Shown piece after piece: positions 633 through 55,874 of a stretch of 64,000 nucleotides of DNA. Origin of the DNA: Trichoplax sp. H2. Taxonomy: Eukaryota. The translations under genes were made by a program, and so were the position numbers. The first letter of the stretch is position 1. The number at the start of each line of letters is the position of its first letter. The notes under the pieces are model-generated. The model searched no databases, was not told the origin of the DNA, and worked only from the letters and a program-made list of their open reading frames with translations. Location of the stretch: assembly GCA_003344405.1 (NCBI GenBank), contig NOWV01000152.1:1-64000 (forward strand), given 5' to 3'.

Positions 633-2258
633 ATTGATTGAAAGCTAAGTTTTATAACACTATCCACTTTTGCGACGTCTAAATTTGGTGATTTAATATC
701 AAAAGAGGGAGATTTATAATTATCGTCAATGACGACTTTGTGACTACCTAATAAATTAAATTAAGTATTCAACTGAAGTAATATTTTTGTTTCAGTATAG
801 AAAGTAGTGGCTTTAAATTTTAAGATTCTTAAATGAATGCTATATGTGTTGATTCTGTCAATTGTTCCTTTATGACATTCGACAGCAAGATTCCGGCATT
901 AGTATTATACAATTTAAAACTTCAAAGTTTTAATCCTCCAGTTTTATGACTTTGAGAATTACGGAAATTAACTTGATTGCGCAATTAGATCAATTCAATT
1001 AAACCAAAGACGTAGTAATAAGAATAGCCGTTATAGAATTAGTCTTGATACACGGCACATTGGTAATCTCTGTAGCATTTGAAATAAGGAAATAGCAAGT
1101 AGAAGATTTCGTATTGACTCGGTTAATGAATACCATCAATGGCTTTATGAAATTGGTGAATAGGCATGATTTAATGATAGTCAAGTATGTATAGTTTTAA
1201 TCATTTTATTTATCGGAAGTTAGGTTGAGAGTTTCCAATTATTTTTATAGGGTACCTAAAACAATTTATAGTTGGTCTATTAGGTAAAAAAGGGGGTAAA
1301 TATTATCTATCTTGATAGAAAATTATCTAGATATAATAAATAGGACTAGGCGAATACCTTTCGAGCTCTTTTTGCCGGCAAGTTTATCCAATATTTAAGA
1401 GAGAAGTTGACAGTGCTAGAAGCTTCTTCGGCCATGTTCTGATGTGTTTGTATTTAAATGCAACATTACAATTCAATCATAGAATTTTGAATTACCTTTA
1501 CCTAGTAATTGGTACTATCCCTGATATTGCCGGAAAATAAAATTGAATAAGTCTATAATTAAAAAATCGGCGTCAAATACTTTATAATTCCTTCTTTTAC
1601 TATTTTTCGCGATCCTCAACATTATTTCACAGAAATATAAGCTTATTAGAGATGAGCATTAATTATCTTCATTTACTTGAAATTTTTCTGTCAATGAATA
1701 TCTATGTTTGTTGATTAGTTCTTTACTATATTTAGTAAATGATTTTGATATCCGATTGGTCTTATAATTATTTATTTTTATTGTCATTAACAATCAGTGA
1801 CATAAAATTTCTTGGCAAACGCTACAGTAAACAATAAACATCATTATTAAAGTTGTGGCATATCGTTTAGTGCGGTGTTTATCGTTTATTGCTGGCTACA
1901 TCTATCTTGCTAATTGATTATATTAGAAGAGTATATTAATGATTTACGATAGAAATAAGGTAAGATGATAGATTGGGGCATTAATCATATACGAAATGGA
2001 ATAGGCATCAACAAAATTATGTTAACATGATTTGTTGCAGTAGGCATTAACTTGTATGTTTGTCTTCCAACCCATTTCTTTGAATCATGATTGATTTTTT
2101 TATTATTTTACCATTAACTTCGAAAAATATATAGAGCCTAAATTTAATTGTTAAATGCAATTAAAGAAAACAAAAACGTAATAATAGGAGAGAGAACACA
2201 CACGAACAAGAAAAAGAAATCTAAAACGTACTCGCAACCAAGAGAAAGCAATTTTGCA

Positions 2259-5200
2259 ATGCAAGCCGAAAATCGTTGTGATCGTCAAGAAAGAGCCGTT
2301 GGTGCTTCTCCTAGCAAATATGCCGAATTTTTTAGTGTTAGTCCTGGAGAGAGTGATAGTGATAATATCAATTACATTCCAACTACTCTTGGCAAAAATC
2401 GATGCTGGTTAAGAGATGATCCTGGTCACGACAGTAGCCGACGAATACAAATGTTTAAAATATGTATATTGATTTTGATACCATGTATTGGCCTTGCTGT
2501 TAGCACGATTATTACCTTACTTGCCGATGCCACTGAATATAGAAAGACTACCGAACTGAGTAATGAAATTATTGCTAGTATCAAATTAGGAAATTTAATT
2601 CACTACTTACAGATCGAACGTGGACAGACAGTACTTCTAGTTAGCTCAAAGTATGATAAAATAGTGTTTGTCAATGTCGTTAAACGCCGATTAGAAACGA
2701 ACAACGCCATCAAAGAGGTCGATCCATGGCCGATAAATGACTCGACATCTAGCTATTTATCCAATAGTACTAGTTTACGTAATTATTTAGATGCTCATCG
2801 TGATTCAGTTGTTGATATGGCAAACACAACCATTGATAGTGAACTAAAATTTTATTCTGATGTCAACAGAGAAATTTTAAATTGGATATCTAGGCGATTA
2901 CGCAATGCAAGGACAGAAATTTTATGGAATAATTTAGTCTCGTATCAGTTGTTTTTAAGCGGTAAAGAAGAAACTGGGATTGAACGCGCTCTTGGCGGTG
3001 TCTATTTTTCACAATCACAACTAAGTCATTTACAAATTCTCCATTATTATTCTAGATTACAGCGTGGACAAATGAGTATTAACTCTTCACGTCAATATTC
3101 AACTTATCTCGATAATCTCTATAAGGTCTACGTATTAAATGCTAGTGTATATGATCAATTGCAAATGCTACGCAAAGATATTATTGCTAATACATATCAT
3201 CAGCCATCAGTTACATATGCCTCTTACTGGTTTGAAAATATTACAATGTATATTGACCAACTCAAAACAATTCAAGATCTAACTGCATATTACATTCAAG
3301 CTGCATCGATAAGAATTGGCAATGCTGCTTACGTTAATTTTGTCATGTCTCTAATATTGTTGATTGTGGTTGCGATTGTATGCCCGCTTTTAATTTATTT
3401 TATATCAAAATTATTAAATCATATACAGTCATACGCCATTAATTTGGCTGATAAAACGCGCAAACTTGAACGAGAAAGACGAAAAACTGATAATTTACTA
3501 TGTGAAATGTTACCAAGATCAGTTGCTGATCAATTAAAACGTGGTAACCACGTTATTGCAGAATCTTACGATAATGTTACACTCTACTTTAGTGATATAG
3601 TTGGCTTTACTAATATTTGCCATCATAGTACTGCTCTCGAGGTAGTCAATATGCTTAATTATATTTACATCAATTTTGATAGTCAAATTGAAAAATACAA
3701 TGTCTATAAAGTGGAAACTATTGGCGATGCTTATATGGTTGTATCAGGAGTACCCAGTCGCTTGTCAGGGAATCGACATGCTGCGGAGATTGCCAACATG
3801 GCTATCGATCTTTTAGATGTAATGAAAGACTTAAGAGCGCCACATAAACCCGAAATCAAGATACAGTTACGCTCTGGGATTCATTCTGGTACAGTAATTA
3901 ATTTTATCATCCTTGTAAAGTAACCTATTGAATAGTATATTTAATTAAAAATATTTCAGTATTACCTAAATTGACTTATTGTTATGCTATATTAAATTTT
4001 GATTAGATTAAATCAACTGTCGTATTCAGTTTTGACATCATTTTCTAGTTGCGTAGTGTAGGTCAAGGGTCAAAAGCACATTAATTATTTGTAGTATATT
4101 CTTTTATAAGTCTAATTATTTAATCTGATGACATTTTTTCCAAATTTTGACATTATTCTACTAGTGGTATCAGGTTATAAGAAAATATAACATTAATTGT
4201 ATGAAATTTTTATTATTTCGGAAAAGTTTCCTGTTTATAGTTAGGGATTCAATAGATACAATAACTGTTTATATTTAGTCAGGGAGCAATTCGATTAATG
4301 TAGTTATTATGAAATGGAATCGACGAATGATATTTTTAAATTGACATGATTGAATTTCTGTTGTCCGAATTACGCAGTGGCTGATCGATATTCTGGGAAT
4401 TGATGGTAAATAGGGAAATCTTTATTCTTAACTGGTATTGCTTTTTGATATGATATAACAGAACAGATTTGATGTCATAGGAATATTCAAGTCATAGAAT
4501 ATTTAGCATGGTCTACTAGTAGATGAACGGAGCTAAGCCTACGCTGATACCGCCTTCCTTCTTTAATTTCTTCCTCATCTCAGGAGACATTTACTGACAT
4601 TCCCTTATTTTACCCTTCGTAGTATCATAGGAATCATTTCAAGAAAGTTATAACTTTTTAATAAATATCCTTATTTACATCAATCAAATTTCAACTTTGA
4701 ATTCTTACTATCGTTGAGTTTAGACGTCTTAATATCATAAATGTGATATTTTTCACTTTACCTGTTTATAATTATTTTATTAACAATTGAGAGAATATAA
4801 CAAGCTTTGTTTTAAACTCACTACATATAAAAACAGTTTAAAGGTATGTAGCGCTAAAGTGACTGATCAAACTTTTACTAAAAATTTTTAATCAATTCCC
4901 CATTTAGGAAAGTAGATTTGAACCTTTTATAGATTGTATATTAATTGGTAATATAGAATTAGTTTTACGGTAAGAATATCATCGTTGGTTGTGATTATGT
5001 TTAAATATTAAAAGAATAAGCAGATGTCTATGTAAAGGTGGAAAAGTCTTGATCATTATAGATCTGATATGAATGTTCGATTCTTATTATATGGGAGAGA
5101 TTTGTTATAAGTGTGTTTACTACAATGCCTGATTTAGGAATAAGGTACTCCAGTTATTAGCTAGACTATAGATGATAACAGAGTTTCTAACACCGAATGA

Positions 5201-9030: not shown

Positions 9031-12000
9031 CTATTCGTCCGAGCTAGAGCTTGAAGTTGCAAGATCGCTTAGCAAGCTAGCTCCAGCTTCTGCTTTCTCA
9101 TCAGTTTCTGATTCTTCATCTGATTCTTCATCAACTACAACATTCTCCAATTGCGACAATTTTACTTGCTATATAAAATAGCAAATGCGATAGTTAATTT
9201 AATGTCACAACCAACATATAACACTTACACACCAATTTTTACCGACCTGGTTCGCCAATTCTTCCTCGTTAAAATCACGATATTCAACAGTAAGCCGGTT
9301 ATTCACATTATCACCTTTAACATTTGCTCTCTGTTTGCTCAATTTTACCCTTTCAAATAATTTATTAAAATGACAGACTTAATCCCTAGAGAGTATTACA
9401 TCAATTACATACATGTGTTAATTGTATTACCTCCAATCTACTTCGTTATAAAATACCTTCCCATCTCTTTTTTCGAAAATATAAGTGTCCTACACATGAA
9501 AACGCATCAACGGTTGACTTTATGAGGGGCAAATATTTTTGGGTAATAATACATCTGTTGTTAATAGTGTACAAGAATGTTCAAACATTATTACATTACT
9601 TACATCGCGGCCGCTATCGCGCGATTTTACCACCCAGTTATACTCTCTCGCAAGATTGTAGTCCCTACAGTTTCTACGGACACAATACGATTTATTTTAG
9701 TGTCGAAAAATATAATAAGACGATATAATGACTCTTACTAAATTACCTAGATGTCTCACTATCTTGGTTTTCAGATACTTTCCTTTTTTTTGCATCAGTG
9801 GCTATGGGTGTATAATATCCTACAAATTGATTACCAGTATCTACTTGCATACCTCTGAGTTATATCAGTTGAAAAGTAAAAATTTAGAAATATCTACGGT
9901 ATTTATACTACAGTATAATTGCTTTTACGAAATAGCCAAAGGTTATCGTAATATATCGTACTTAATGACAGAATTAGACATTTGCTGTTCAGTTAATTTT
10001 GATCCATCAGTTAATTTAGAGGGGTCAGAATCAAAGGTGACAAGCGCAAGCGAGTACTTCCACATCTATTCAATTTTAAAAACGGACAATAAATTAATCA
10101 CGTATCAGAATCATTTATAAGAAGTGTATATTTAGCATAAGTTGAGTGGACATCATAGGAATTGAAGCACTGCATAAAATTCCGTTTGGCTATTGCAAGG
10201 AAATATTACCTCGAAGTCGGGAAATAGAGGGTAGGATCGCTTCGCAGTAACGCCAGGTTTAGTAGGATGATCTATAATCTGCGTTAAATATAAAATTTAA
10301 TCACTCGGTGGTATGCACAACGAAAGCTAAGAAATAGAGAGCTGACGGTCTCAGATATCTTACAGGCTTTTTGGTGGCTTCAAAAGTTTTCTCAATAGCT
10401 TTGATTTGACTTTCTTTATCCTGTATCAAAGCCATCAATATTTCATTACGTGACGGCAGACAGTAAAACAGAATTTTGGGGATCGCTGTAACTTTTACAG
10501 AAACATTGAACACAATCTACGCTATTCTGTTTGTTATACAAATCTGCATAAATAGATCTTTTGTAAGAGTTGCAAAAAAAATCCATATAGTCACATTGTA
10601 CTATTCTTTGACCGTAACGACTAGTGTATTAGGGTCTATGCCACATGCATTCTTTTTTGTTTTAATATTTAATTATGTTTGCTATGTAGTTTCTAATCTT
10701 ATAAAGTAATCCATGCTACCTTATACTTTTCCAAATTCTTAGCATATTTTCTGACGCTATAACCGACTCTGTTAAAGAAGTATACATTTTATAACAGCAA
10801 TCAGTAATTATAATAATAAAATTAATATGGTTGAAAATATTTATTACTTTGTTTCTGGTTTATCGGGATTCTGTGCCATTCGTACTCCTTCGTTGGATAA
10901 GTACTCATTTCGACGCATCCACGATACTGTCCTCGAATGCCTAGTCCTGGTGCGATTATAACAATATAAGTAATAAAAGTCAAATTCTCCACATAATAAA
11001 AAAAACTCAGCGCTACTGATCGTTAAAGTGCGATTACCACTTTGGTATACATCGCCAAGTAAACTAAAGTAAACAAATAGTAAATCGAAAGTTAAAATCT
11101 AATAAATCGTACCCCTTGCGATCCATGGAAGCTGATCCTTCTATCCCTAACAAGGCTTTGTCGGCATCGTCTAACTCCGCTATTATTGGCCCAAAGAAAG
11201 TAAATTGGGCACATTAACAACAGTTTACCGCGGAGGTTTTACACTTCATTAATGGGATTATGGTTATAAATTTATCCGTGTTACAGTTATCCAAACGAAC
11301 CGTCTTCATCGATTATGTAAGCGTCAGGATCAATTAAACCATTCTTAACGCCGGCATCTGTGTCAGTCAACAACTCATGCTTGTGTTCTCTTTCAAGTGA
11401 GGTAGTATTATAATCTGTAAAGCTATGAAATGTAGAATATTCTGGTTAAGTAATTTCTATCAATAGCATAAGGTATAGTTTATTGATGTCACAACGACAG
11501 GGATGAATGGTAGTACTGTAAATTGGGTATGTTATCGCTAGGATAATAAGCAAGATGTTATTAACTTTTCATAGTGTAGGATTACTTTTAACCAATCTAT
11601 TCAACATTTATGACATACAATTATTATAATTGTCGTCGTATAACAGTATTGCCTTTTCTTTTACAGCAAATCAGTGATTTACGTTAAGATAATTTTATTA
11701 CATACATATGATGCATAAAAGAATGTACTATACATACGTAGACGGTCCATCAGCAGAGAGATTTTAAATAGAACTTACCGATTATTTTCAAACGGATAGC
11801 GTAGAAATTTGGGATCAAATGGAATATCAGGGAGTGTATTTCGGTATTTGATACGGCAGAGAAGGTCAGATCTATAGGAGATTGGAAGTTACATTATTAA
11901 AATTTATAGATATTATCAAATAATTTTCAACTAGAGAACCGTATTCTAGACGCTGTAATCGAACTTAAATTTGCTTAGTGTAGAATTATTCATAACTGAT

Positions 12001-12949: not shown

Positions 12950-14090
12950 GCTCTGCCAAGAGGACTGGTCCAGTACGGTACTGGACTGTCTTGGCTCGAG
13001 CTGTATCGTACTGATTGCATCTCCGTCTTTACCCTACCGTACTGTACACTGTACAGTACAGTACAGTGCGCTTTCTCGTCCGCTTTTTACTGTACTGTAC
13101 TGTACACTGTACGTACACTACTGTACCATATACAGTACTGTAGCCAATCGCCGAAAATCAATAGGTCTGTATCGTATCTTCTAGGTCTGTATGCGTATCA
13201 GTATAGTATCTTCTAGGCGTTCAGTGAATACTGTGTACACTGTACTGTACAGTACGAAAATGGAAAAGTCCATTACAATACAGTACTGTTGAGAATTTTT
13301 ACAGATTTTACTTAAAAATTAGAACAAATCTATAGAAATGAAAGCCAGATTGACATTCCCGAGTTATTGGGCTACATCAATATATAAGATGTAGCCTACT
13401 TTGGGCTTGCTTTAGTCTACACGGCTTATTTTCCAGTCCCATGTTAACCCCGCTGTGTACAGTGTACAGTACAATAGTGTACTGTACTTCAGACAGATGG
13501 ACTATTGGTACTCAATGAGGCTGTCAAGCGAAAAATGACTACTGTACTGTACTTAGTATGGATCTTCCATGTCTATTTTCGAAATCACCAGCATTCATTT
13601 CGATCGCGTCTACGATCTTATATTACTTTTTTCAAGTAGAAATTTTGAATAGATAATAAGATTCAATGTAATATTACTTCATTTAGAAAACATGAGTCCA
13701 TTTAAAATCGACTATCTGCATACTAAAGTACTGCCTTTTGGACGAGATGAGGCCGAAAATATCTGTCCGTCCAATGATCTTTTTCTTCTAGTAGTCCATC
13801 AGTCAGTCCATGATACACCGAGTAAAACAGATTCATGTGGTACTGTACAGTACTGTACTGTACTGTACAGGTTACACAACAATCTCTACAGTACTTTATT
13901 GTTATACTGTACTGTACACTGTACAGGCTCTATAAATGCTCTGTAAAATGGAAAGACTTACAGTACCGTACAGTACCGCACGGTACTGTGGTTAGAGGAC
14001 TTGCACGGAGACAACGCCATTGGACTCTACTGTATGGGCAGTTGTTGAGTAGTTCTTGTCAGTATACGATAGGACGGATGGACGGATAGT
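12950..14090. repeat. CAGTA/TACTG-rich island containing a dispersed-repeat core
   Basis: Many tactgtacagta palindromes. The core at 13555-13810 resembles 46428-46697. Confidence 0.8.
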
Positions 14091-14773: not shown

Positions 14774-17700
14774 ATGGCAACTAAATTATATGATCATGGC
14801 TTAAATTTAGACATGACTTCAGATATTGCAAGTAATACGCTACATGGATTGGGAGAGGTAGGAAATCACTGCATAAGAATACGTACACTCTTGTTGGTGT
14901 AGCACTTCACCTAGACGTCGATGCAATTGCCGTGATTCAATCGCTACTCTTATATCTGTATATCTTGCTATTTTATAATTTGCATAACATCTCAATCTGA
15001 TATTATACAGGATACAATTGATTTTAAACCACTTCCTAAGACCAGTATACTCAAGAAATCAATTTTGAAGGTAAGCTGATAAGGATAGAAACTGCAGATC
15101 GTCGATCGTAACTTTAATTAACTACTACTTACCAACAAGTCAAGGCAAGTTCTTCATAGAGGAAGCGATTGAATCACAATTTATTCTCAGCAAAACCATA
15201 AATTAACACTAATTTTGCCTACCTATAAATGACTAAGATAATTCACTTCATACTATGTCCGTTTATACGACAGATTCTACATCATATTTATTACCATTAT
15301 AAATAAGCGTAAACAATGTCTAAACTTGATTGTTGTCCGATACAAGAAGACCGTTGTACAGACATGATTTGCAATGTAATTTTTATACAACTCTCTTGCT
15401 TTCTATTTCTTTTAAATATAATTATGACATTATAACAATAAATCGTCGTAATAATGACGAACCTCGACTGCAGTATTACGTATAATATATAATCTAAAAT
15501 AGGCAAATAAAACTTATTGATGACACCATGACGTCCAGCAACGCCGAACCTTCGATAAGAAGTGGACGAATAGCAACATTTAAATACATTGCTTGCTTGG
15601 AATAAAGCCGTTACTAAACATATCGAGTTGAAGCTAAAATATCCCGATAATTATTAACGTTAAAAAAATCACCAGAAAAACATGGAAACGGTTAATCGCA
15701 ACAATGTTATTACTATTTCCTTGCATAAGTGATAGATTTGAAATCAAGCTATTTGTCCTAATGCTATACGTTACAGAATTTCTGAATATTCAGTGGCCTA
15801 CAGTTAAATTAGTTAATATCCAAATCATCTCATAATACCATAACGTTTAGGAATTTACAAATCTTGCTCATAGGAATTCGTTATTATCAGTTATTATTCT
15901 GCAGCGTATTTGTCTTAAATTTTCTAGTGTTGATCTTGAGTTGCAACATTACTTATTGATATCAAATATGACCTACATAACCTATTTGGCATATAACACA
16001 GTGAACTTGCAATCTCTATATCGTAGGCAATAAAAATTTTTTGATTTATTTGGTTAACTTTTTCAACTTAACTCATCTACTTTGTTAATATATTCAAATG
16101 ACCAAATTTTAAACGAGACAGTATTTATCAGTTAGTTTACATTGGCCTCTAATCCGCTACTCGGTAATGAATAGTCAACTTTTAAGAAAGATATGTTATT
16201 AGTAATTTCCTTAATAATTTTAAATGAAATTGATTGTAGTGCTTCTCCTTTATAAAAATGTCAATTAATAACTTGGCTATATTGAATTATAAAACCCCAC
16301 GCTAGTTGAAATAATAGATTACAATGTCGTCGAACTCGCAGATTTTATCAAGGCCTTATTGTTTTTGTATCACACAATAGTTACATTTATAAAGCATACA
16401 TATAGTAGAAATCCAAAGGATTGATTTCCTTGAATACTAAAAGGTTATATATAGATTTTATATCGTTATATTACTCTGCTCTGCATAGCTGTATGGTATA
16501 GAAGAATTATAAGCTTTTTTTTAACTGTCACATAATATTTAGAATATCAGTCATAGAGATTAGTAATGCATTAGTGCTACTTACAGTGAAAGCATTTGTA
16601 CCCGTTTATACATAAATATTCGATCTTGGAAGTGTGCGAGAAGTCTACTATTATTTTAGGTTATATTTAAGTTATGAAGCTAACTTAAACGCAGCATAAT
16701 TGAAAAGACAAACGCTGTTAAGCAATTTTACTTTTTATGTTTGCTAATGGAAATTCCTGTTTGCTTGTAATAGAAATTTGGAAACGATACTGATGTTTCT
16801 AGCACCAATTTAAATATGAAATCGAAGAAACGTGTCTACTTTGATGTCACACATATTGAAGAACATGAAATCCACAATGAAGATTATATATATGAAGAGA
16901 ATGGAGATATAACTAACGAGGAAAACAGTTTCAATCAAGATGGCATTCAACAGGAGGAGTATGATGATGCCTTTCAACAGAACGGTGATATTGGAGATGT
17001 TCAGACATTAGAAATAGAAGAAGATAAATTCAATGAGGTAGATAAACATCTATATAAATCATCAATCATATAAGCAATCGAAGTCGTGATATTCACATAC
17101 AGTAATCTACAGTACATAAACTTCTATAATTTTAGCTGTAACATGTAAACTATGTGTTTATATCCTAATTATTAGGCTATCAAAGATAGGAATACACCAC
17201 TTTCTACTTTTAAAGCTATGATAGCAGAAGAAAAGGAAAAGCTTAAAAAACAATTAGAGATATTTCAAGAAAAGTGCCAAAGAGAGGTGAGTTTTCTTAA
17301 CATGCTCAATAAACTCTACCTTTTCTTTCTACAAAATTTTCTTGATAAAAAGTTTATATAAGATTAATATTTATAATGTAAATAGCTTAGAGCAATGAAA
17401 CAAGAATTAGATGATAGAAGAGAACTATTTTTACTGGAATCTGAAGAACTTGACGCTTTAGCTTATGAACAAAGGTAAATCATTATAGGCTGTATAGGGT
17501 TATTATGGAGTAATTTTTGCGCAGCTGTCGTAACATGGATTCCATAAGACAATTTATCTAGAAACGTATTTACATACCGTTATCTATGACGGTTTACATA
17601 TTATAATAGATAAATATATATTTTATAGTATTATCTATAAAGTGATAAAGTGATAATTAATGTTTATATCGATGCACTATAAATTGACTGACTTTTCAAT

Positions 17701-19299
17701 AAAGTTTGGGTTCAGTTATGTTTAAGAGAGACTAGCGTTGTGTTACTGTTCCTCCTGACCATAGGAAATCGTCAGTATTTAGAGTCTTAGTGTAGGTTAA
17801 AGTTAAGGAAGACAAACCTGACAGTAGACTCATAGTGTGTAATTTCTGCAATAGTTTAACTCTTTCCTCATTACAAATTTCGATTTATGAAAAGGGTATA
17901 TAAAATGTTTTACTGACTTTATTGCATTTTATTTAGGCAACAAATAGAGTCTGAACTTGCTGAGCTACAAGCTGAATTGAATTTAAATAAAAAACGTCAA
18001 AGTTACCAAGCAAAGGAAGATAGATTAAAATTGCTAGAGGGTGATTTGGAACGACGAGCCCAGAATTCAAAAGACTATGAACAAGAGGTAATTTAATATG
18101 TTATCGGCCCTTCACAGTAAATTTCAGTATTGATTCGTAGCAAATTATATAGGATTACATTATTAGTTTCTAATTATTGCACTTTAATAACTTATTCAAA
18201 CTTAAAATTGATATAATCTGACTCTATTATATCGACAATTAATATATCATGTCATGTTATCATCATAGTATAACTTCAATCTAAGCTTAAGGAAGACTAA
18301 TTTAGTCTGTTTACATTCGCAATTTTTAAAGATTATTGAGATGGAAGAATATCTTAACAGGCGGCATCAAATGTGGCATGATAAAACTATAGAGTTAAAA
18401 GAAAGAGACAAGGTTTATTTATTGTGTAAATTTAATGTATATCTATCGCAACATTGTTGAAGAGAGAGTAATTTAGTTTTTATATCAAATTAAACAGATT
18501 TATGACTCATATATTATGCATAGGAATTAAGTGAATACGAAAGGGAAATTTCTTCTAGAAAGGAAAAGTTAAAAGAATCTGGTATTGATCTCGATAAAAA
18601 CGAGTAAGTTATGCTAATATTCTGAATTTTTATGTGATTATAATCAATCCAAATTACAAAAGATCAGTTCGACTAAATTTACTACGATTGCTTTTCAATA
18701 ATATTTTATCATATCATAGTTGCCAGGATATAACATTTGAAATTTCCATTATATAGGATATATCGATCCTAAGATCATTCATTTTCTTCCTTAATAATAA
18801 TATCACTCTTTTAGGCGATCGGACGATAATGAATTACAGAAGAAAATTCATGAACTGACAAATTCTCTTCAAAACTCCAAGCAAAATCTATATAAGATTG
18901 AATCTGAATCAAAGGAGAAAGATCTAATGATATCATCGATGAAATCTAAGGTTTTTTTTTGCCATCAAGATTAACCTACAATTATTAGAAACAGAGTGTA
19001 TTTAAAATTTTTGACAAGCATTATAAAGATTCTTACTTATTATAATATTAATGTTTTTTTGATAGTTGGATGGATTTACAAATGAAAATCGCGGCCTTCA
19101 GCAGAAAATGAGACATTTAGAATCACAGTTATCTATTACAATGGAAGAAGTTAAACAAATGAAAAAAAAACCTGATAATCGAACTAATAATGTGGCAGCA
19201 AGGCATGGTAAAATATTTAGAAGATCAAAATCTTTAGACAATGAAACACTAAGAGGTAGACGGAAAAGTACCATAAGTGTTGCTTGTACAGTAATGTAA
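14774..19299 (+). CDS. Uncharacterised coiled-coil protein with N-terminal SILK and RVxF motifs and a C-terminal polybasic stretch plus CaaX (CTVM). About 10 exons: 14774-14857, 15011-15070, 16774-17037, 17176-17286, then further exons to 19066-19299.
   Basis: All GT-AG junctions splice in frame. The protein has an acidic N-region, E/K/Q/L-rich heptad-like exons and ends RGRRKSTISVACTVM*. Confidence 0.8.
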
Positions 19300-21433
19300 T
19301 AGACATAGGCTGTTAAACTAATGTATGATGTACATATAAAGATGAAATAATTATTTCTATGCACCTACAATTCTAATATTCAGCGATACGGGTATAAAAT
19401 TTTATCCCATTTGAAGCAATTATTTTTTGTACAGCATCTATTTATTAATTTTATGCAATGCTAATATGAAAATACTATGCTAAGCTTATTTATATATTAG
19501 GTCTATCAATGTATCTTAATCGGTATTCCTAAATTATTCGTTTCTTAAGTCGTTTTCGTTCTTTGTAACGATTCAGATATGATATCTATTCTTTCGATAA
19601 AATAATATTATTTTCCTACCATTCGATCATCTAAGTAAATGCCATTTTCATGTCTCCGTAAATTATTTTATAGTAGTTAAAATGGCCTACATGCGAAACA
19701 GATATAAAGTCATACTTCTCGTCACATTTCTGAAATTTTAAAACTATCCGTTTTATAACAGCTAGAAATGGGGATGATTTATATATCATTTCTATATGCT
19801 TATTTAACTCCCATTCTTTTAAAGCCGTATTTGACAATCTGGATCAATGATGTAGCATAATCTTTATTCTGTATCATAACCAAAGCCAATATGAATTTCT
19901 ATTTTGATGGCTGTTCTAATCGGAAAAAGCAGTATAATTTTAACATTTACAGTATTTTAATAAATTGAATTGTTATCTGCTTTATGGTTAAATGAAAACA
20001 TGTCAAAATGTAATATAAATTGCTAAATTATGATTTGTTGTCAGTACCCGTAGTAACTTTGTTAAAATGCTACATGTACTGAAAGATTTGTATTTGTTGA
20101 TAATTTTGTAAATTTTTTTACTTCTAACTTTAATATTATAGCTGCAAAGTACGCTTTTCATCTCGTATTATGTTGATAGGCAGGTTGATCAAGGCGATAA
20201 TAATACTATTTAGTCTTCCATTTATATTTTTATATTACTAAAATGGATAAAAACGCTAATTTTTATATCTTGGGTAACTTTTTTATAATGGTAGCGCAAC
20301 GTAATGTAGCCAATTAATTGTTGTAAAGGAAATATGATTTGTTAGGCTTGCAAGTTATATTTCAAGCTAATTTCGAAGATAACTTGAATCGATTCAAAAT
20401 CTCTAGATTTTACTACAAATACGGCGACAGTAATACGTATATATATATTCTCGTATATCAATAAATTAAAAGTCAACTATTCCTCATTATAAGAATGAAA
20501 ACTTTGAGCCAATTTTTGGTAGCATTATGCTGTATTTATCATTACTTTATCAAACTTATTTCCTTATTAGCATGAAGTGCATTAAGAACTATTCGCAGCA
20601 TAGTAAGACTTTTGAAGTATGATCTATTCAGGTGGTTATTACGCAATAGGCGTAAAGCGTGAACCAAACTGAACGTTTATTAATCCTACAAAATAATTAG
20701 CGGTTATATATATTTTAATTTGGTATTCAGTAGAATCATAAAATTTAAAAATAAAAACCATAATGTTTGGCCAATATTCATATATTACTTTTCAAGTACT
20801 ATAGTTCAAGTCGAATAATTAAATTTAAATTAGAAAAAAATATAACCGATAACAATTTCGGTAAACACTTATTACAATAAAAGACTATAATTAATACTAG
20901 TAGCTGATTGAGTTTAAAGATGTAACTTTGTAAATTTTGACCAAAGATTTACCTATTACTTTCTAAGTATTACTGTATGAGGAAATTATTAAAATCTATG
21001 CTAAGCCAGTCAAATATTGCTAATTCATATCATATTATATAGTTGACATAGTTTTGATTACAAATAGAGCTGATCTTTTCCGTAGTAGCATGTCAAAAGC
21101 TAATATTTAATTATTTCCCTATCTATGTACGTTTAATTAAAATGCTTGATAGTAGCAGGAAAATATCAAAAATCTGTAATGCCACTGTGCTACAAAGTGT
21201 AAACTAAGTACGTTAAATGACTACCGATTGATTATGTAATATAATAACTCGTTTGACATTTATTAGCATACCGTAGTATAATAGCCGTAATATGTATACT
21301 CGTATACGACAGTGTACAGATCCAGACAGGATGTAAATGAAAACCTGTAGCGTTTGATTTAGCAGAAAAAATTATTTTTATTATTATCAAGTTAAGTTAT
21401 AGGTTTTTAGCTGTTATGGCCATGAATATTACG

Positions 21434-22252
21434 CTATATTTCATCAGCGTTACTATTTATACAGTAGCTTAGCAGTTTTTCTAATGCTGCTGGTCCATAA
21501 CTAGCTGCATCGGCTTGAACATCGTCTTCTTCAAGGTGTTGTCCGTATAAACTATAGCTTGAATGCGGTGAATATACACGCCATTCGTTACCGGAATAAC
21601 GAAATATACTAATATTTAAAAGCAATGCCGCCATTGCTGGTAAATATCGAAGTCTATTATTGCGTATGTCCAGTTCTTGAAGAGCAGTTAGTAAGCCAAT
21701 TTGGGATGGTAATCGAGAGATTAAATTATTAGCAAGCTTAAGGACTATCAGCGAATTTTTCCAAGCTTGGCAAATAGCGTCAGTAGATATAGAATCAATT
21801 AAATTGGAAGACATATCCAGATGCTGTAAATGCTTTAGATATCCTAATTCTGCTGGCATTTCTAAAAATTTATTAAAGCTTAAATTCAATTTTTTCAACT
21901 TTTGCAAATATTTCAGACTTTTAGGAAATGCCACAAAATCATTGCGGCTAAGGTCGACCGTTCTTAATTGGCGTAGATTTTCAAATATAGGCGATGGAAC
22001 AACATTTAATTTATTATCGGATAGATCAAGAGTTTGCAAATTGGACATATTAACTAACTGGTGTGGAACACTACCAGTTAATGAGCACCCAACGATATAT
22101 AGATGTCTTAAATTGGTCAATTTTTCGAGAATTCCTGGCGATATTTTCATTAATATTACTTGTGAAAGCAATAATTGACGAGTCACACGTGCTTCTCTTG
22201 CTTTGCTATTTAGAATGGCTTTAAGTTTAGGATTGGCGTCCATATCCATCAT
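21434..22252 (-). CDS. Intronless leucine-rich repeat protein (272 aa)
   Basis: Repeated LxxLxLxxN motifs (LQTLDLSDN, LRTVDLSRN, LKKLNLSFN, LQHLDMSSN, LIVLKLANN, LQELDIRNN). Confidence 0.9.
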   Translation of the reverse strand: MMDMDANPKLKAILNSKAREARVTRQLLLSQVILMKISPGILEKLTNLRHLYIVGCSLTGSVPHQLVNMSNLQTLDLSDNKLNVVPSPIFENLRQLRTVDLSRNDFVAFPKSLKYLQKLKKLNLSFNKFLEMPAELGYLKHLQHLDMSSNLIDSISTDAICQAWKNSLIVLKLANNLISRLPSQIGLLTALQELDIRNNRLRYLPAMAALLLNISIFRYSGNEWRVYSPHSSYSLYGQHLEEDDVQADAASYGPAALEKLLSYCINSNADEI

Positions 22253-22603
22253 GAGTAGTAGAGTCGTTCTATATCATCATACACAATCCAATATTTGCCA
22301 TTAAGGCTATTTTGACTTCAATAAGAAGTAGAATTTCACATGACATGTCAAATATAACATTGATGAAGGCCTTGACTTTTACCCTATAACGGAATCGTTT
22401 GACAATTGACAGTTAATAATATTGACTAATATCGTGCGAAATCGGCTTGAACTAGTTTGTAAATAAGCATTCTGTACGATTATTTCACGAAGAATGTTGA
22501 ATTTGCGCCATTGGATGACGAATGGTCTAATTATTATTTAATAATTACTATATAATTGTTATAACCATTATTAAGTACAGATTTGATTAAACCCTTGCTC
22601 TAT

Positions 22604-23464: not shown

Positions 23465-25173
23465 ATGGGTAATGAAGATTTCTATCAACGCCACATTACG
23501 AGGTTAGGGCAAGACCTAATCACACCTAATGTCGGCTCTTTTTGCACAGGTAATGCCCATTAATCAATAGTACCTTAGTATATCAAGTATCTCGTTGTAT
23601 TTGTTATTTTGTTAATGCTATACCTTGATGATTTTGTATTAGTTATCGTCACGGGGAAGCTCGTATCGAACAATACAATTATCGATTCTCGTTATGATAA
23701 AGAGGTAGAGTGGAAAATTGGTCAAGGTAAATAGGTTATGATATATAAATGATACTTATTATCTTTTTAGGATAGAAGTAATTCTATTACTAAGATAGTT
23801 GATCCTATGCTACCTTAACTTACTTTGCCTGCTTTATTTATATATTATATGCTTTTAATGATGGTACTTGCTCTTACTGCATATGTGACTAATGAGACCG
23901 TAATTTAAATAAAGTTAGTTTAGCTTCTAATAATGTTGTGATAATACTTCTATTTATGAAAAATTTGATAGGCGATACTGAACTATGTGAAGTGATTGAT
24001 GACTGTTTACAATCCATGCACGCCGGCGACATTTGCAATTTTACTCTAAAACCAGATGAAGCCTACTATATTCTCAAAGAAGAGGATATTCATATAGATC
24101 AAGATATCGAAGTTGTATATGAAGTTCAATTGAAGAAATTTATTAAGGTAAACTACGTTCGTCTTGGTTATACGTAGACTCCTCCTATCATCTATTATTA
24201 CTCGCTTACATTATATGGGTCTTTATTTATAATAATAATACAGGCAAAGGAGACTTGGTATTCTACTGTAGAGGAGCTGTTTAATGAAGCAATAAGTAAT
24301 AAAGCAAGGGGTGTAAATCTATACAAGGTCAAACTTTTAGTGATATCAGTACTTATGATACATTGAATGTCTATCACGGCTATATCTAAATACATTTATA
24401 CATACTTTTCATGGATACTTGTTTAATATTATTGAAAAATTTCTATATTAGAGCGGAAAGGTTATTGCTGCAGCTCGCAGATTCAGTATTGCCTTGAAAT
24501 ATTTAATTATTATGGAATCTGATCGCCTAGCAAGCCGAAATGATGAACATTGTATGCAAGATATGCGTATAGTATACTATGTATATAATAGAATACGGTT
24601 ACAATTTGTAGGGCGCAGTATGTTACTTAACTGGAGCTGTTAGCAGTTTACTCCATTTAATCTTAATCAATTAATATCTTCCAGCTAATCTCAGAAAAAA
24701 TTGCTATCTCAATCTTGCTACCTGTCAAGCAAAGCATAACATGCATCGATCAGTAATTGCCAACTGTTCGAAGGTTTTGAAATATTGTAAATATCACCAT
24801 TGGCTTTAAGGTAGCTGTTGTTAATAGTGTTTACATTATACTTACTCCGTAGGTTTTACAGATGGAACCAAATAATCTAAAAGCTCTATTTAAGCGCGGT
24901 GTTGCGTACACCGCTGTCAATGATTTTGATAATGCTAAAGCTGATTTAGAATCGGTTGGTTAAATGTTTACAACAATAATTTCTGTTACACGACAAATTA
25001 CAAACGAACTATATAATTTTAACTAGGATCAATTCTTTTATTAGGCAAAATTACAAGATCCGAGCAATAAGGCTGTCATAATGGCGATACAGAACTTATT
25101 TACAAAAACACTAAAGCAAAATAAATTCTATCAGCAAGCTTTGGCTGGCATGTTTCAGAGTAAAAGCAAGTAA
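23465..25173 (+). CDS. FKBP-like immunophilin: degenerate FKBP domain plus three TPRs (FKBPL-like)
   Basis: Spliced exons give TPNVGSFCT, IDDCLQSMHAGD, VYEVQLKKF, KARGVNLYK, CYLNLATCQAK, NLKALFKRG, DPSNKAV and a terminal LAGMF. The start codon is uncertain. Confidence 0.8.
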
Positions 25174-25515: not shown

Positions 25516-28500
25516 TTAGATCCAAGGCTTTGTGATAGCAACGCCACCAATAAGTAATAGTATTAACATCATCATGAAGCCTAAAGCACGGTCACGAGCC
25601 AGTCTATCGAAGTTGGTTAAAGAGAATGGGTATAATATATCGGAACAGCATTTCTTACTTATTTCCCTATCTCGCTCCGCTGACCTAAATTGAAAATTGA
25701 AAAAATTATCATACAGCAATGGCCTAATAACACCTACCTTATATAAAGAATGAAGATGACTTCAGCACTTCTAGTTTATACATACAATATATTAATATTG
25801 ACTTACAGTGGCTCATTGGTTTGCTGGATAGCAGGAACCTCAATAAACGTTGTGAATACTTTAACAATAAAAGGTTTAAAACGTGAACTGAAAGTTAATG
25901 TGGCAGAGGTAGAGTTGGAAGTTGGTGAGGTGGTATCGTTGACTTGTGAAGAACAACCATAAGCTCCACCAGTTCCACAAATAAAATCCCAGTCTTCCAG
26001 ATTATATCTTGAATAAAATATATAGAATAGTCATTAATATTTGCAGTATTTCTAAGCCTGATACAATCATAACTAGAATAACATACAGTACCTTATCTGA
26101 GCACCAACGATTTCCCATTCTAATTTGCCAATGGGCGCTGTTCTGACTTGAGCAGTGAGAAATGTCACATTTAAAGCCGCTGGTATCTCACTACATGAGC
26201 CACTAATGACGCTAGGATTACTTGTGAGGTTGTTGGTATAGACGGGATCTTCCCTAAGATAGGTAATTGAGAACAGATAGTATGCGTACGTTACAATAGT
26301 TAATAAATAAAGCTTCAAAATGATACGCTATCGGAACCCGCAATAAAAACTATCAAAATACGAGTCTAAATTAAGTTCTACATAATACTGAAGATCACAT
26401 GGAAGCCAAGATCTAGGTACAACTTTATTACTCTACGGATATACTTACTTGATAATCGACAGCCAATCATTGTTTAGAGTATCACTGGAATTGCCTCTTT
26501 TGCCTACATAATCAGCCGATATTGACCCATCTAATAATATTTTAACACGATCCCTTAACGCTGCACAATCTTGAAAATCGGCAATTGATAACGACAGGGT
26601 ACATCCACTAATTTCATCATTGCCAAATGTGACATCGACTCTACTGGAGCTATCGCATAAACCATTACTACTAGGTGACCATCGCCGCAAGTAAGCGCCA
26701 GTTGATACAATACTATTGCTAGAACCGCCGCCTATTTGATTTATAGCAAATAGGACGGGGTATTTCTTAAGATAGCCCGGATTACCAGAGTAACTAACCA
26801 TTGGTAAAACGGTGGTATTGTGAATAAATTGTACGCTAAATTGCTGCGTGAGAGTACTTTTCCTTCTACTAGTTGAACTAGAGGTTAAAGGAACTGAGCC
26901 CATAATTACATCCGCGATAATTCTATCAATTTCAGGTCCATTCCAGTAAATTTTATAATCTACCTTGGTAACAACATTATTGCATAGACTAGACGTAGAA
27001 TCGAGAAGTGGTGTGGGAGGTCGTGTTCTACCGTCGTCGAAGTTACACCTTCTTAGATTGGCAGGATTGTTATTTGTAGCTGATTGCCCATTAGTGATAT
27101 ATGGTGATATATCGTTAAGACAATAATAATTTACGGTTGCAGAAGCTACTATTGCACCAGTGAAAAGCTTTTTTACCGCATCAGAGATTGGACATGGAGG
27201 AAAGGATAGCGATCGTGACATTAAGTATTGTACTGCACTCCACGTTGATGTTGGCGTACACAAGGAATTGCTTATCAACTGAGTACAATGTGAATTTGAA
27301 TTTATGAGATATCTAACTAAACCTCTTTTGGTGCAGCCGCCTATGATTTGGCTAGGCAGAGCTAAATATCCAGAAAGACCGCCAGAAATATCTAAGACGA
27401 TAGGAATTCCATATTGATATGACACTGTATTTGTAACTTGACCAGAAAAGGATTGCAATTCTGACTCGCGATAACTGTAAATTGCACGACTAGCGGTAAC
27501 TAAGGTATTAAAACTGGATACGCTAGTAACAGCTGATCGAATAGAATAAAAAAAGCCAAGTAAAGGATTATTATCAACAGCCACGCACATTAGTGCTTCA
27601 TAATCTTGTTTATCTGGCCATATTGCTCGACAATCATGCTCTAATGGTCTAACAACAAACGGCCGTAAGCACGTTGTAAACGTAGCAATATCCGAAGCGG
27701 TACAATCCTAGCACGGCATATCAATAAATGGTTAGATTGATTAATGAAAAGCCTTTTTTAATTCGAAATTTAATTCTGTGTCTATGGGCACAAACTCAGG
27801 TTATACTTACCGAATCACAACAGCAATTAGGATCGCAAAAATTTACTTGTAAATTACAAGGACATGGAGCAATATCTGTAAATGCTGGATTGACGTTAGT
27901 TAGGATGCTTCCTGTATAATAATACGAAAAAATTGCCGTCTTTATTAATGAATTAATATACTATAATTAAATTATAAAAACGTATTTTTATAGTATTACC
28001 TGTTGTGATATTTTCAGGTACTATTGGGCTAAGATCTAAATTGATATAGGCCGTAGCATTTAGTCCTCCATATCTAGGATTAGTAGTGCTACTTCCTGAT
28101 GAACAGGTTATCGAAAACAACTGTTTCCAAGTTTGATCAATTGCTGGCGATGTAATCACATTAAGTGTCTTAAAGTATTCTCCAGACTAAAGTTGTAAAA
28201 AGTAACACAAATGAGCATATCACATTTGTCAATTACCTTATCAAAGATTTTAGTACAGAATGAATCAAATTTCTACCTGAAAGGCAATAGTTGATTGTGA
28301 TAGCGATACGGTTGCCAGTGTTCCGTTTGCTTGTACGATTGAGGAGGCAATTTGATTAGTACAGGTTGCAAGGTCTTGATTTCCTGTTTCACTGTAGTTA
28401 CTAATACAGCATGTAAAAATAGCTGCGAATTCAGCACTTGGGATGGGTATATTGACGGTTAAATATAGTGTAAGGTTACTTCGGTACATGTTATTATACG

Positions 28501-31500
28501 TTGGGATAAGACTTAACGCCGCAAGTTGTATGCGAAAAGTTGCATTTCGACCTATTAAGGCGAACACATCATTTAAATTGTATACAAAATATCGTTGTTT
28601 TCAAAGGGATGAAATTTAAATTTCAGATTATGCTAAACTTACTTGCTGAGGTTGCAGTAAGAAATTGTGTACCGGCGTTCGATGACTGTGCGGTACAGAT
28701 CACATATGCATCTCCTAAGTCTTGACTTGAAACAGTATAGCTTATCTAATGGTAACAATGACAGAGTAATTGAAATAAGTATTATATAAATGGCTTTCAT
28801 TATAAATTGGGGACGAATATTAATTGAAGATAGTTTAACATACGCTAGCTATTCGAATTCCTATAGCAACATTCTGCTGGACAAAGGTAACTTGCGCAGT
28901 ATTACTACTAACAGTGTTGCATGTGATAACGACAGGATTATCAGCCACACTTCCACTGTAATATGAGAAAAATTGAATAATTAGCCTTTCTCTTTCTATC
29001 GGGAGCCGAGATATGTTTATGAGAATTTCAGGATACCTCAAGTCAATCCTTGCAGTGCCAGCTCCAGTTACCGGTACGACCACAACATCTGAGCAAAAAT
29101 CAGCTCTGGCAGCTTTTACCACGCGTATTGATCTGATGTACCGACAAAGTAGAAGAAAATTTAAGAATTGAAGTACTAATTATTCTCAATGCAAGGTTGG
29201 TTTACCCAGTCAATCCCACAGAAGTGTTGCTTAGGAACTGGGTGCCTCCAATCGATTGAGCTGAGCAAGTGATGGTTGCTGCTTGACCAGGCGATGATAT
29301 ACTGTATGGTAAAACAAGATTTGTGATAAAATTAAAATAGGACTTATAGATCACCATCAAAGATTTTAATTTAAATCTCTCATCGATTGCATTTATATTT
29401 ATTGACATATAGTAAGTAACTAAATCAATGAGGTATTACACAAAACTTAATAAATATTATAATTATATACCACATTACATTTATAAAATTATATGATTAC
29501 GTGTTTAATTAATACTTGTCATTCTTGGTATACTTCAGTAGTATAATCGTAATTTCGATTATGTGATAATTCAACATTAATTAAGTATATCACATTACAA
29601 GATTACCATCGTTACACGTTAAACTATACCCAAAATAATCCTTACTGATTATTTGTACGGTAGTAGATGTATTATTTCTACGATACGTGGTTTTATCCAA
29701 AATATGCTAACTTACGTTGTATAAATATGGATCTAACTACACATATTCGTTTATAATATAATTTATAATCATTTTATATCATAATCCGAAATATAGTTAG
29801 TGTCCATTATAATGGTAAACAGCTCATGTACACATAACGAGTCGTTTTTTAATCCATAGAGAAGTAAGAACCGAAGTATTCAATTTCTATATGCAGTAGT
29901 TTTGTATTTTTACATCAACTTTGGCTACGTGTACAATTTTCTGCCTTCAATGCTAGTTAAGAGTAGTGCAAACCTTCAGTGCAGTGCTAGTATTAGCTTA
30001 ACAGTTAAACCTAACAGATATTAAAATGGTAACATTGCAACATTTAAAGTAACATTACCTGTAGGAAAGACTGCCAGAGTTACTACCTGGTGGGATCAGG
30101 ATCGTACCGAATACTAAATTTGTTATATCAGAAGCTGCATTTGAAACTCTACACGTTACGGATACCTACAGTAGATAAAGTTAACCTTAAGTTCTTAATA
30201 GCAGGCATATAAATTAACAGCCACATAATATAAAGCATTTAAATTTCTGCGTTAGACTAGCTGAGAACGATAATACCGGCTAACAGCGTATTTAACCGAA
30301 ATTGAATTGCTGACATAAATTTCGTTGCATCTCACGTTCAGTTGTTTATAATACACTAAAGTCATTACACTTTAAATATGATCTGAAACGATGACTTACA
30401 TTGTTCGCTATCACATTTTCACTTAATTGAACTGCAACGTTACCAGTTCTCTGATTTTCCTGCTGTGTTATAGTGGCTCTGTTAACGATATTCACTACGG
30501 CTTGATCTATTGAGATATATCAATGGATTTCGTGACATATAATAAAATTATTCTTTTCAAGTAGATAATAAAGTTAGAGATGGGTAAAACAAATTATTAA
30601 ACGAAAGAGCCGTAGGGAATACGGAATAGTAAAGTTTTTTGGTCTATAACATAGTGTTTATACATATACGCTCGCATACATATAATAAATTACGACAGCA
30701 AGTAATTTTTGCTTTGTTTGCGGTATATTATTGATTGATAAAGTCAAGTGCATAAGCTATCATAAGTAGATTAAATCTTCTAAGTAAGTATTATAGAATG
30801 AATATAGACCTTTTTATTTTAATACTTACTTTTTTGGCACATATAGCTCGCCAATTGCGTACAACTTTCATCGAACCATGACCATTGAGGGTCGGCAGTA
30901 ACGCAACGTTGATTAGTATTACTTGGCTGTCCGCTGGCCCAATTAGTATAAATAGTTAATGATGCCCCATCAGTCCAGCGATAATCAGCTAAATTATTGG
31001 CACCATTTTGATCACGGAGACCAATCCAAAAACTAGTAGTAATATTGACGAAAGTATCTTGTAATATATTGACAACAGTGCCACTTGTAATAACTATTAG
31101 ATCGCCATTCAATTGTCTGCAACTTGTTCTTGCTGCTTCCCAGCTAAGTTGTTGATCAAAATGACGATAACATTTATTTTCAACATCGGCCCAACCATTG
31201 TTCGTATCGCAGCTATCCACTAGAGATGGTTGGATACAATAATGATAGGATGTAAGGGTATTCATATTTAGGAATATTATCATCAGCATCATGACTTTAT
31301 GGAATAAATAAATTCATTCACATACTTCTAGAAAACAATTTGACTCTTACATGATTGCGTCAATTCTGTTGTTAGTCAATATAAAGTAAACTACTATACC
31401 TTCACGATCAATCTAATGCATTGCAATCATTGCTGGGGTACGTGTAAGAAAATGCTCTACTACTACTATACAGTCCTTAAATCATAAAGCAAAAGCAATC

Positions 31501-32146: not shown

Positions 32147-33197
32147 GACTTGCTAGGCAAACAGTCGTTTGGATTTTTGATTTCTAATAGCGCCACATTG
32201 GCTCCCTGTCAGCTTGAGCGAGTTGATGAATTAATTAATCAATTTTGATGGATTTGGAGCTCTGGGCGTCATGGAGATGAGAGATAATAGCTTCCTCCTC
32301 ATGCTACAGTACATTGTACCGTGGTCATCGAGTACAGTACTGTAGTAACATGGAGTGGTGTCATGGCCGACTAAGATTTGGTAGTCCACTACATACAGTA
32401 ATATTATTCACGGTCAATATGGTTAACAGTATCCCCAAATCATCGACCATAAAACTATGTTACATGAAGTAAATACGAATATGTTGATGTATTTTCTGAT
32501 CAAAACTTTTAAAAACTGTCTACGCAAGAATAGTGAAGGCATACAACAACGCAGATCATACGATTTTTTCCCGGTGTTAGACGACTTAATTGCAACTTCA
32601 CGGACATATTTACTAAAGTTTACCCCAACTGTCTATGCAAGAATAGTGAAGGCATACAACAAGAATTTCTATATACTTGGCCATCTAAAAATCTGAAGAA
32701 TAGTAAACATAGCGTACAACAACAAGTGATACTGTCGGCAAGGATTGACTATAACAGTACTAGTACACTGGTAGAAAAGGCTTTTTGGAAAAATCAATAC
32801 AAGATTTTATACTGAAGCTGCTAATATAATGTTCCAATAGAAAAATTCTCTTGCAAAAAGCTCAACATAAGCCATGAATTATAACTATAATTACAGGTCA
32901 TAACCTAGCCTGAAGGTTTACTGTAAATTACTGTACTGTCTGTATGTCTCTACCAAGGCTCCAAGCCATCATATTGTTGATGGAATGCATGGATTACTAG
33001 AAATTTTTACCCTCAAATTTCTGATCAACTGGGAGAATCCATGGAGATTTTTCTATACTGCATCTGTATGATGAGGCTACAGTATGTATTGTACAGTACT
33101 GTACTGTAGTACTGTAGAGTTTGAACTGTAGCTCTTGTTCTACCGTACTGTACTGGTCTAGGGTGCAAACGGATACGCATGCGTCCTAATTTGAACC

Positions 33198-47214: not shown

Positions 47215-47992
47215 CCTAGTGTCGACGATGGCTATAATAGTTGCAAATATCATGTCCACGAAAGGCATTGGTTTGGTGTTTTCTTATTAAAGCATCGATC
47301 GATCTGGACGGTAGATCGAGGCCTATATACGCCGCAAAATATCTTGTTGATAACCGTTGTTGCCTTGGTCATTTTGCATTTCCTTCTTTTTATTCGCCAT
47401 TGCACTAGATATACACTCATTACAATACAAAACATTGATTAACACTTTAGGCCATCTTTCATCGTATGAAGAAGGATGATGAACATTCGATATCCCTAAT
47501 CCTGACAATGGGCTATGGCTGGTGGTGTGGTATATCCACGGTTGGCATTGATATGACTTAACTAAGTACTTTATGCCCAATACTTCACTCTATTACATTG
47601 ACTTTACGGCTAGAAATAGCCTACAATTAATTGCTACAGTAATTATAATTGTCATTGGTTTTGGCCAACCTATTTGGTTACGATTGATGTAAGTTCAATA
47701 ATAATTTAACAACATAATTATCGCCATCATTATCCATGGACGGGGGATATTCAATTTGTAAAGATTATCATGAGTCCTCAGTATGGAGTAGCACGATAAA
47801 GGGAGACCCACGTAGACGTATATATGCATTTCTACAAGTAGCCCATGGCAGATACGATTACTGCATTTCAATCCAATACTACTGAATTTTTAGAAATCAA
47901 TTGATTGAAAAATTTGTCTTTTTTGTTCTATCTCTCACTCTTTCTTCATCTTTCTCTCCTGACAGTAACGATCTCATTCAAATTACCAGAGG

Positions 47993-50950: not shown

Positions 50951-55874
<4,924 letters not shown>

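Follow-up and report, generated by a model that had tools for sequence, protein, structure and literature searches.

A Trichoplax sp. H2 gene encoding a candidate prenylated, coiled-coil protein phosphatase 1-targeting subunit of an apparently unnamed animal family

Analysis of a 64,000-nucleotide stretch of Trichoplax sp. H2 DNA (assembly GCA_003344405.1, contig NOWV01000152.1, positions 1 to 64,000; here called the window) revealed a gene at 14774-19299 on the forward strand whose predicted product carries candidate docking motifs for protein phosphatase 1 (PP1), two long predicted helices and, at the C-terminus, a motif for prenylation (CaaX). Ten exons and nine introns, all nine of the GT..AG type with compatible phases, give a 1290-nt frame of 429 codons and a stop. 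The predicted product (P0001) is identical, letter for letter, to hypothetical protein TrispH2_008602 in NCBI. When exon 10 was used as the query, 10 candidates were obtained, and TrispH2_008602 was the only protein returned among the matches listed. Its 90% identity cluster holds a single further member, the T. adhaerens model TRIADDRAFT_62315 (P0002, 444 amino acids). A first-pass annotation made from the DNA alone had placed the gene at these coordinates, with exon joins 14857/15011 and 15070/16774, and had read two SILK motifs, an RVxF motif and a CaaX end from it. Because the model is identical to an independently annotated NCBI protein, these joins and motifs are correct at the level of the predicted gene model. 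The join between the SILK exon and the RVxF exon (exon 2/3) is agreed by both public models. Shares of the gene in sequencing runs (of 20 runs listed, 18 contain part of the stretch and 3 are recorded as RNA) cannot show junctions and hence were not counted; in six runs of guessed kind the shares were 0.25 to 0.28, against 0.20 to 0.29 expected from exons alone.

All parts of the gene lie on the forward strand. Exon 1 (14774..14857, residues 1 to 28) begins with the ATG and matches both P0001 and P0002; no similarity to the relatives described below was seen. Exon 2 (15011..15070, residues 29 to 48) encodes both SILK motifs (15044-15055 and 15059-15070, residues 40 to 43 and 45 to 48). Intron 2 (15071..16773, 1703 nt, phase 0, GTAAGC..ATAG) is the longest of the gene and separates the SILK exon from the RVxF exon; the in-frame candidate exons inside it are only two, both short and weakly flanked. 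Exon 3 (16774..17037, residues 49 to 136) encodes KKRVYF (16825-16842, residues 66 to 71), a possible lid/ΦΦ[xF] extension (16843-16872) and an acidic linker that runs to 17037. This linker (residues 76 to 136; 22 D/E versus 1 K/R, net charge -21) had been overlooked in the first-pass annotation. Exons 4 to 8 (17176-17286, 17386-17474, 17937-18087, 18332-18412 and 18524-18603) encode the first long predicted helix, and the second begins in exon 9 (18815..18950, residues 307 to 352). Exon 10 (19066..19299) encodes the end of helix 2, a conserved LExQL stretch (19105-19131), RRKS (19258-19269), S-V-A-C-T-V-M (19276-19296) and the stop. The last four of these residues, CTVM (residues 426 to 429, 19285-19296), form the CaaX motif, and the tail from residue 385 to 429 is basic (net +10).

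AlphaFold2 predicted helices at residues 145 to 299 and 309 to 384/386, about 230 helical residues in all, mostly with a predicted local distance difference test score (pLDDT) above 90. Confidence was low at residues 1 to 128 and about 387 to 429; over residues 1 to 128 the pLDDT was below 50 in both models (one from the single sequence, one from an 8-row alignment). With low pLDDT taken as a proxy for disorder, the PP1 motifs are predicted to sit within a disordered N-terminal segment. Shuffling the protein 200,000 times gave two SILK motifs within 10 residues in 14 cases, SILK with a loose RVxF no more than 60 residues after it in 316 and a CaaX end in 41. By itself, the loose RVxF occurred in 27% of 2000 shuffles, in line with the chance occurrence of about 25% quoted for it (PMC4794898). 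Searching P0001 against Pfam revealed nothing specific and no ankyrin match at E ≤ 1.

To find related proteins, 1.84 billion representative sequences were searched with phmmer (E ≤ 0.001). The search returned 11 proteins including the query, with the named relatives at E values of 2e-11 to 3e-4. Seven named relatives were counted: those of a sea anemone (Nematostella), a brachiopod (Lingula), an amphioxus (Branchiostoma), two hemichordates (Saccoglossus and Glandiceps) and two echinoderms (Antedon and Acanthaster). The relatives P0003, P0005 and P0012 were excluded from every count, and the isoforms P0013 to P0017 were likewise left uncounted. The relatives are annotated as "uncharacterized" or "predicted" or bear coiled-coil names that were assigned automatically (myosin-11, CCDC18-like, LRR-containing); NCBI lists those of amphioxus, hemichordates and echinoderms as "uncharacterized".

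Because coiled coils match by chance, homology was tested in three ways. Leave-one-out profiles of the eight members scored 109 to 262 bits each (partly circular for the query itself), whereas 200 heptad-preserving shuffles of each scored at most 61 bits and reversed sequences below 0. Alignment of the eight members revealed ten invariant columns, clustered at R243-L282 (R243, E253, E258, Y260, R264, L275 and L282) and L370-L374 (L370, E371 and L374); the core around Y260-L-N-R-R264 is encoded at 18085-18364, across the exon 6/7 join. In the tree, the four ambulacrarians group with support of 100/99 and the two hemichordates with 100/100, as expected of orthologues; the deeper branches are long and unresolved. 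In Pfam, at E ≤ 0.01, the eight members matched only ATG16 (two of the eight) and RNase_Y_N, Filament and ADIP (one each), with none of these for P0001 and no ankyrin match in any member. The PDB gave one match for the single sequence (E 0.68) and eight generic coils for the profile (E ≥ 0.011). These results indicate, at the level of sequence, that the Trichoplax gene is a member of a real, conserved and apparently unnamed animal protein family. The earlier statements that the family was unfamiliar and that ankyrin repeats were absent agree with the lack of a specific Pfam or PDB assignment and with the uncharacterized status of the relatives.

No vertebrate, fly or worm protein was among the phmmer matches, but the sensitivity of the search barely reached the known relatives, so that absence is not shown. 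Word-indexed searches were uninformative on range because they were crowded out by coiled coils: among the 8000 candidates covered, P0001 returned only itself, and the 8-row profile two of the eight known members. In the ESM Atlas, the top cluster for P0001 (0.90, 139 shared features) and for the Lingula protein P0004 (0.87) was the same, which is a lead only. This cluster is unnamed, arthropod-leaning, 846 amino acids long and 174 members strong, and may represent either the family's arthropod branch or a generic coil; no named cluster reached 0.9. In mostly open-access literature, supplements excluded, no paper naming the Trichoplax identifiers or those of six relatives was found, nor one in which RVxF, CAAX, prenylation, the plasma membrane and PP1 occur together. 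The genes could be listed in expression tables for placozoans or cnidarians.

The third test used the C-terminal tail, which provides evidence separate from the search itself. The phmmer matches stop at or before query residue 411, so agreement in the tail lies outside the matched stretches. Six of the seven named relatives end in S-x-x-C-x-[IV]-[MLV], so that the CaaX motif, whose conservation the first-pass annotation had left to be checked, is found in seven of the eight members. A cysteine four positions from the end in six of seven relatives has a binomial probability of 2.7e-11. A serine stands at -3 from that cysteine in all six CaaX-bearing relatives (P about 6e-5 at tail composition) and thus in 7/7 members including Trichoplax, and the residue at -1 is Ala or Thr in all seven. 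The X residue of the motif is Met in five of these seven, Leu in one and Val in one. Met at this position favours farnesylation, and Leu geranylgeranylation. The polybasic patch that had been proposed alongside the CaaX motif did not hold up as a family trait: within the last 25 residues the relatives have 1 to 5 K/R versus 1 to 4 D/E, compared with 6 K/R versus 2 D/E in Trichoplax, where alone it is clear. Sites of the protein kinase A type, RRx[ST], occur in the tails of six of the eight members (a post hoc test), with enrichment individually beyond chance only in Lingula (P 0.005; 0.11 to 0.22 in the others), a weak hint of phospho-control of the tail.

At the N-terminal end, three RVxF patterns were used, one of them excluding FIMYDP and another with a single-residue basic prefix. 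The Trichoplax sequence KRVYF (residues 67 to 71) matches the loose published definition, [RK]x0-1[VI]{P}[FW] (PMC4794898). A strict-type RVxF with a one-residue basic prefix was present in four of the seven relatives (RRVHF, KHVQF, KSVQF and KQVRF); with a chance of 0.011 to 0.024 per protein, at least four in seven has a probability of about 2e-6. The motifs lie 169 to 220 residues before the core tyrosine in the relatives and 189 in Trichoplax. In a BLASTP comparison, the Trichoplax and Nematostella RVxF motifs aligned within one 257-column match that continues into the coil. The Nematostella, Lingula and Branchiostoma proteins continue as F-x-L-x-x-N-x-x-[FI]-x-[YFL], with Leu at +2, Asn at +5, Phe or Ile at +8 and Tyr, Phe or Leu at +10. 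This extension fits the lid/ΦΦ[xF] register of RRP1B, in which the lid is Leu688 at +2, ΦΦ stands at +7/+8 and Phe696 at +10 (PMC9813921); ΦΦ is described as degenerate (PMC10731240). A 25-column profile of the RVxF region found no PP1 regulator in the PDB and nine chance PsaH matches.

The two Trichoplax SILK motifs start 28 and 23 residues before the RVxF (S45 to R68 for the nearer one). In mouse Rif1, SILK at 2128 and RVxF at 2150 are 22 residues apart, and loss of SILK costs about 20-fold in affinity (PMC5437018).

On this evidence, we consider it fairly probable that the gene encodes a prenylated, membrane-anchored PP1-targeting subunit of the MYPT3/TIMAP kind, in which a coiled-coil rod replaces the ankyrin repeats. 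Cys426 would be prenylated, with Met at X favouring farnesyl, as the conserved CaaX motif and the prenylation rules suggest. Through this lipid, aided in Trichoplax by the basic tail, the C-terminus would be retained either on a membrane or within a prenyl-binding carrier. The predicted helices of residues 145 to 386 may pair into a coiled-coil rod that serves as a spacer and that may bind a partner or substrate through its invariant core, around Y260-R264 and at LExQL. The disordered N-terminus would dock the PP1 catalytic subunit through the RVxF motif and its lid/ΦΦ[xF]-type extension, as motif conservation suggests, and in Trichoplax one of the two tandem SILK motifs, 23 to 28 residues upstream, could act as a second PP1 site. 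The outcome would be local dephosphorylation at the membrane, perhaps switched by the kinase sites in the tail. The functional guess of the first-pass annotation is thus the leading hypothesis, with better support from the RVxF extension, the core and the S-x-x-CaaX tail than from the SILK motifs and basic patch.

Several observations weigh against this reading. The Trichoplax RVxF fails the strict pattern (x from CHKNQRST) because of Tyr at x, and the full [KR][KR]-prefixed consensus (PMC4794898) fits one of the seven relatives, Nematostella. The Saccoglossus, Antedon and Acanthaster proteins have no RVxF under any of the three patterns, so that it is absent in three of the five ambulacrarian and amphioxus members; the Saccoglossus site, aligned by eye to the Glandiceps RVxF, reads IVYY. 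Conservation of the motif, which the first-pass annotation had left to be checked, holds for the four relatives whose strict RVxF stands at a comparable position and not for these three, so PP1 docking may not be a universal core function of the family. The Trichoplax extension is weaker than that of the relatives (Val at +2, His at +8, Ile at +10), and Glandiceps has no lid. SILK was found in none of the seven relatives, where a widened definition gave one GIVK in Acanthaster, and is thus not supported as a signature of the family; its spacing from the RVxF in Trichoplax is close to that in Rif1 (23 versus 22 residues). It is a reasonable inference from these sequences that the placozoan SILK offsets the weaker Trichoplax RVxF. 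The Nematostella model (P0006) has no CaaX, but its 3' end may be mis-modelled, since its tail at about residues 510 to 610 is repetitive, unlike that of all other members. P0002 equals the H2 protein across residues 1 to 415 except for one residue (His/Tyr319) and then diverges: its model splices from a plausible donor at 19256/7 (AG|GTAGA) to an acceptor at about 19760, and the CaaX motif is lost as a result. Finally, the named relatives number seven, and each was chosen by similarity to the query.

Some of these observations favour other explanations. The protein might be a prenylated coiled-coil tether or scaffold for which PP1 docking is a lineage-dependent accessory. That the coiled-coil core is common to all eight members and CaaX to seven, that RVxF is missing from three of eight with at least two changes on the tree, and that SILK is confined to Trichoplax would all fit such a tether. 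RVxF at a like position in placozoan, cnidarian, brachiopod, amphioxus and hemichordate proteins, and an extension in PP1 register in three of them, argue instead for long selection, and the losses are confined to the ambulacrarians, a 100/99 clade. We regard the tether as unlikely, though with an appreciable chance of being right. The family could also be a diverged orthologue of a characterised coiled-coil/CaaX family overlooked by the searches, such as Spindly, CENP-F, lamin/intermediate filament, paralemmin or a CCDC protein of vertebrates. Relatives were found only at E 2e-11 to 3e-4, so remoter members would have been missed, word-indexed searches recovered at most two of the eight known members among the matches listed, and for the Lingula protein the ESM Atlas listed Spindly with a score of 0.86, as a lead only. 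Atlas scores below 0.9 are leads only, however, and six different named coiled-coil families stood at 0.85 to 0.86. All eight members have no specific Pfam family, the PDB profile matches generic coils, the intermediate filament end motif was present in 0/8 and the intermediate filament start and Spindly patterns in 1/8 each, and the amphioxus, hemichordate and echinoderm members keep their "uncharacterized" NCBI labels. A missed orthologue is improbable on balance.

The expressed product might also differ from the model, either because splicing removes the CaaX motif, as it does in TRIADDRAFT_62315, or because transcripts begin within intron 2 and use Met63, so that both SILK motifs are dropped. 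The donor in P0002 is a plausible one, exons 1 and 2 have no counterpart in the relatives, and intron 2 is long, with an in-frame Met ahead of the RVxF. Reading through yields an end that agrees with the tail of the family (Ser at -3, Cys, aliphatic residue, Met), whereas the spliced end does not: the final coding stretch of the T. adhaerens model (19764..19847, forward strand, within the H2 model's 3' region) gives a C-terminal NLDQ that matches no family member. Exons 1 and 2 have the same joins in both public models. The splicing-out of CaaX in P0002 is probably a gene-prediction error and possibly a real non-prenylated isoform; as an account of the gene as a whole, a different product seems very improbable.

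PP1 is highly conserved and owes its specificity to its targeting subunits, and the prenylated ones in the literature found are the ankyrin-repeat pair MYPT3/TIMAP. If a PP1-targeting role is true for the present family, it would represent a new design by which PP1 is brought to membranes (RVxF, coiled-coil rod and CaaX), retained in six phyla or subphyla of animals, and would make motif turnover visible, with SILK gained in placozoans and RVxF decaying in ambulacrarians. A bolder version, which is doubtful and to which we give only a small chance, is that the family is ancestral, predates the placozoan/cnidarian/bilaterian split and constitutes a second, ankyrin-free class of prenylated PP1 holoenzymes, possibly lost from vertebrates and common model invertebrates, whose invariant Ser-x-x-Cys tail would be routed by PDE6δ to a specific membrane (e.g., cilium or cortex) and released by tail phosphorylation.

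The window around the gene is AT-rich animal DNA with a GC fraction of 0.28 to 0.41. Clusters of the heptamer ACAGTAC/GTACTGT, with 4 to 16 copies per 500 nt, were found at 1-500, 13000-14000, 33000-33500, 46500-47000 and 58000-59000, which suggests a repeat that is dispersed and in part palindromic; one of the clusters is located some 0.8 to 1.8 kb upstream of the PP1-candidate gene. The nearest recognised gene upstream is on the opposite strand (10304-11098), where two stretches match Paf1 weakly, and a long single frame at 2148-3923 (+) carries a NIT nitrate/nitrite-sensing domain with HNOBA and guanylyl cyclase domains. Downstream are genes for a leucine-rich repeat protein (21434-22273, -), an FKBP-type isomerase (23896-24174, +), a tectonic of the ciliary transition zone family (26445-27707, -) and a C-type lectin (30819-31313, -). 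These are followed by a weakly matching mitochondrial sphingomyelinase fragment (35128-35469, +), PRP39-type HAT repeats (42869-44172, -), a galactosyltransferase fragment (47969-49135, +) and a PARG fragment (52879-53097, -). The neighbouring genes in the window suggest no functional cluster.

Long coiled coils with a prenylated C-terminus, a layout also predicted for the Trichoplax protein, are known from Spindly, CENP-F, lamins, paralemmin, EHBP1 and bMERB proteins. The present family differs from Spindly, CENP-F, lamin, paralemmin and EHBP1 in that its Pfam matches to these families do not go beyond a weak Filament in one of eight members and the hallmark motifs are not conserved. Lamin/intermediate filament was rejected as an identity (coil-2 end pattern in 0/8, coil-1A in 1/8; Filament in 1/8 at E 0.003, not P0001), as was Spindly (CC1 box in 0/8 and Spindly-like pattern in 1/8; no Spindly family in hmmscan, whose Pfam copy may predate the model). 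At the tail, the serine at -3 in all seven CaaX-bearing members resembles that of INPP5E and GRK1, high-affinity PDE6δ cargo in which a Ser at -3 combined with Ile/Met at -1 gives high affinity and ciliary sorting (PMC5512577). The likeness to PDE6δ cargo goes only half way, since the family has the serine but Ala or Thr at -1 in place of Ile or Met.

Among PP1 regulators, RRP1B offers the Leu +2, ΦΦ +7/+8 and Phe +10 register that is matched in three relatives and loosely in Trichoplax, but RRP1B is nucleolar and has its SILK C-terminal to RVxF. Mouse Rif1, KNL1 and inhibitor-2 combine SILK with RVxF (PMC9813921, PMC5437018). The likeness to Rif1 is close in arrangement, with SILK about 22 residues before RVxF in a disordered segment (2128/2150 in Rif1 and 45/68 in Trichoplax); motif grammar alone is shared with these three, and the Trichoplax SILK is tandem and lineage-specific in a protein that ends in CaaX. 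MYPT3/TIMAP (PPP1R16A/B) combine ankyrin repeats with a PP1-binding motif and with a prenylation motif through which they associate with membranes (PMC3560227). Membership of PPP1R16 fails for lack of ankyrin repeats, in whose place the Trichoplax protein has two long predicted helices, and no sequence similarity was seen. What the Trichoplax protein has in common with the pair is its layout, a putative PP1-binding motif near the N-terminus and a prenylation motif, here CTVM as read from the sequence, at the C-terminus.

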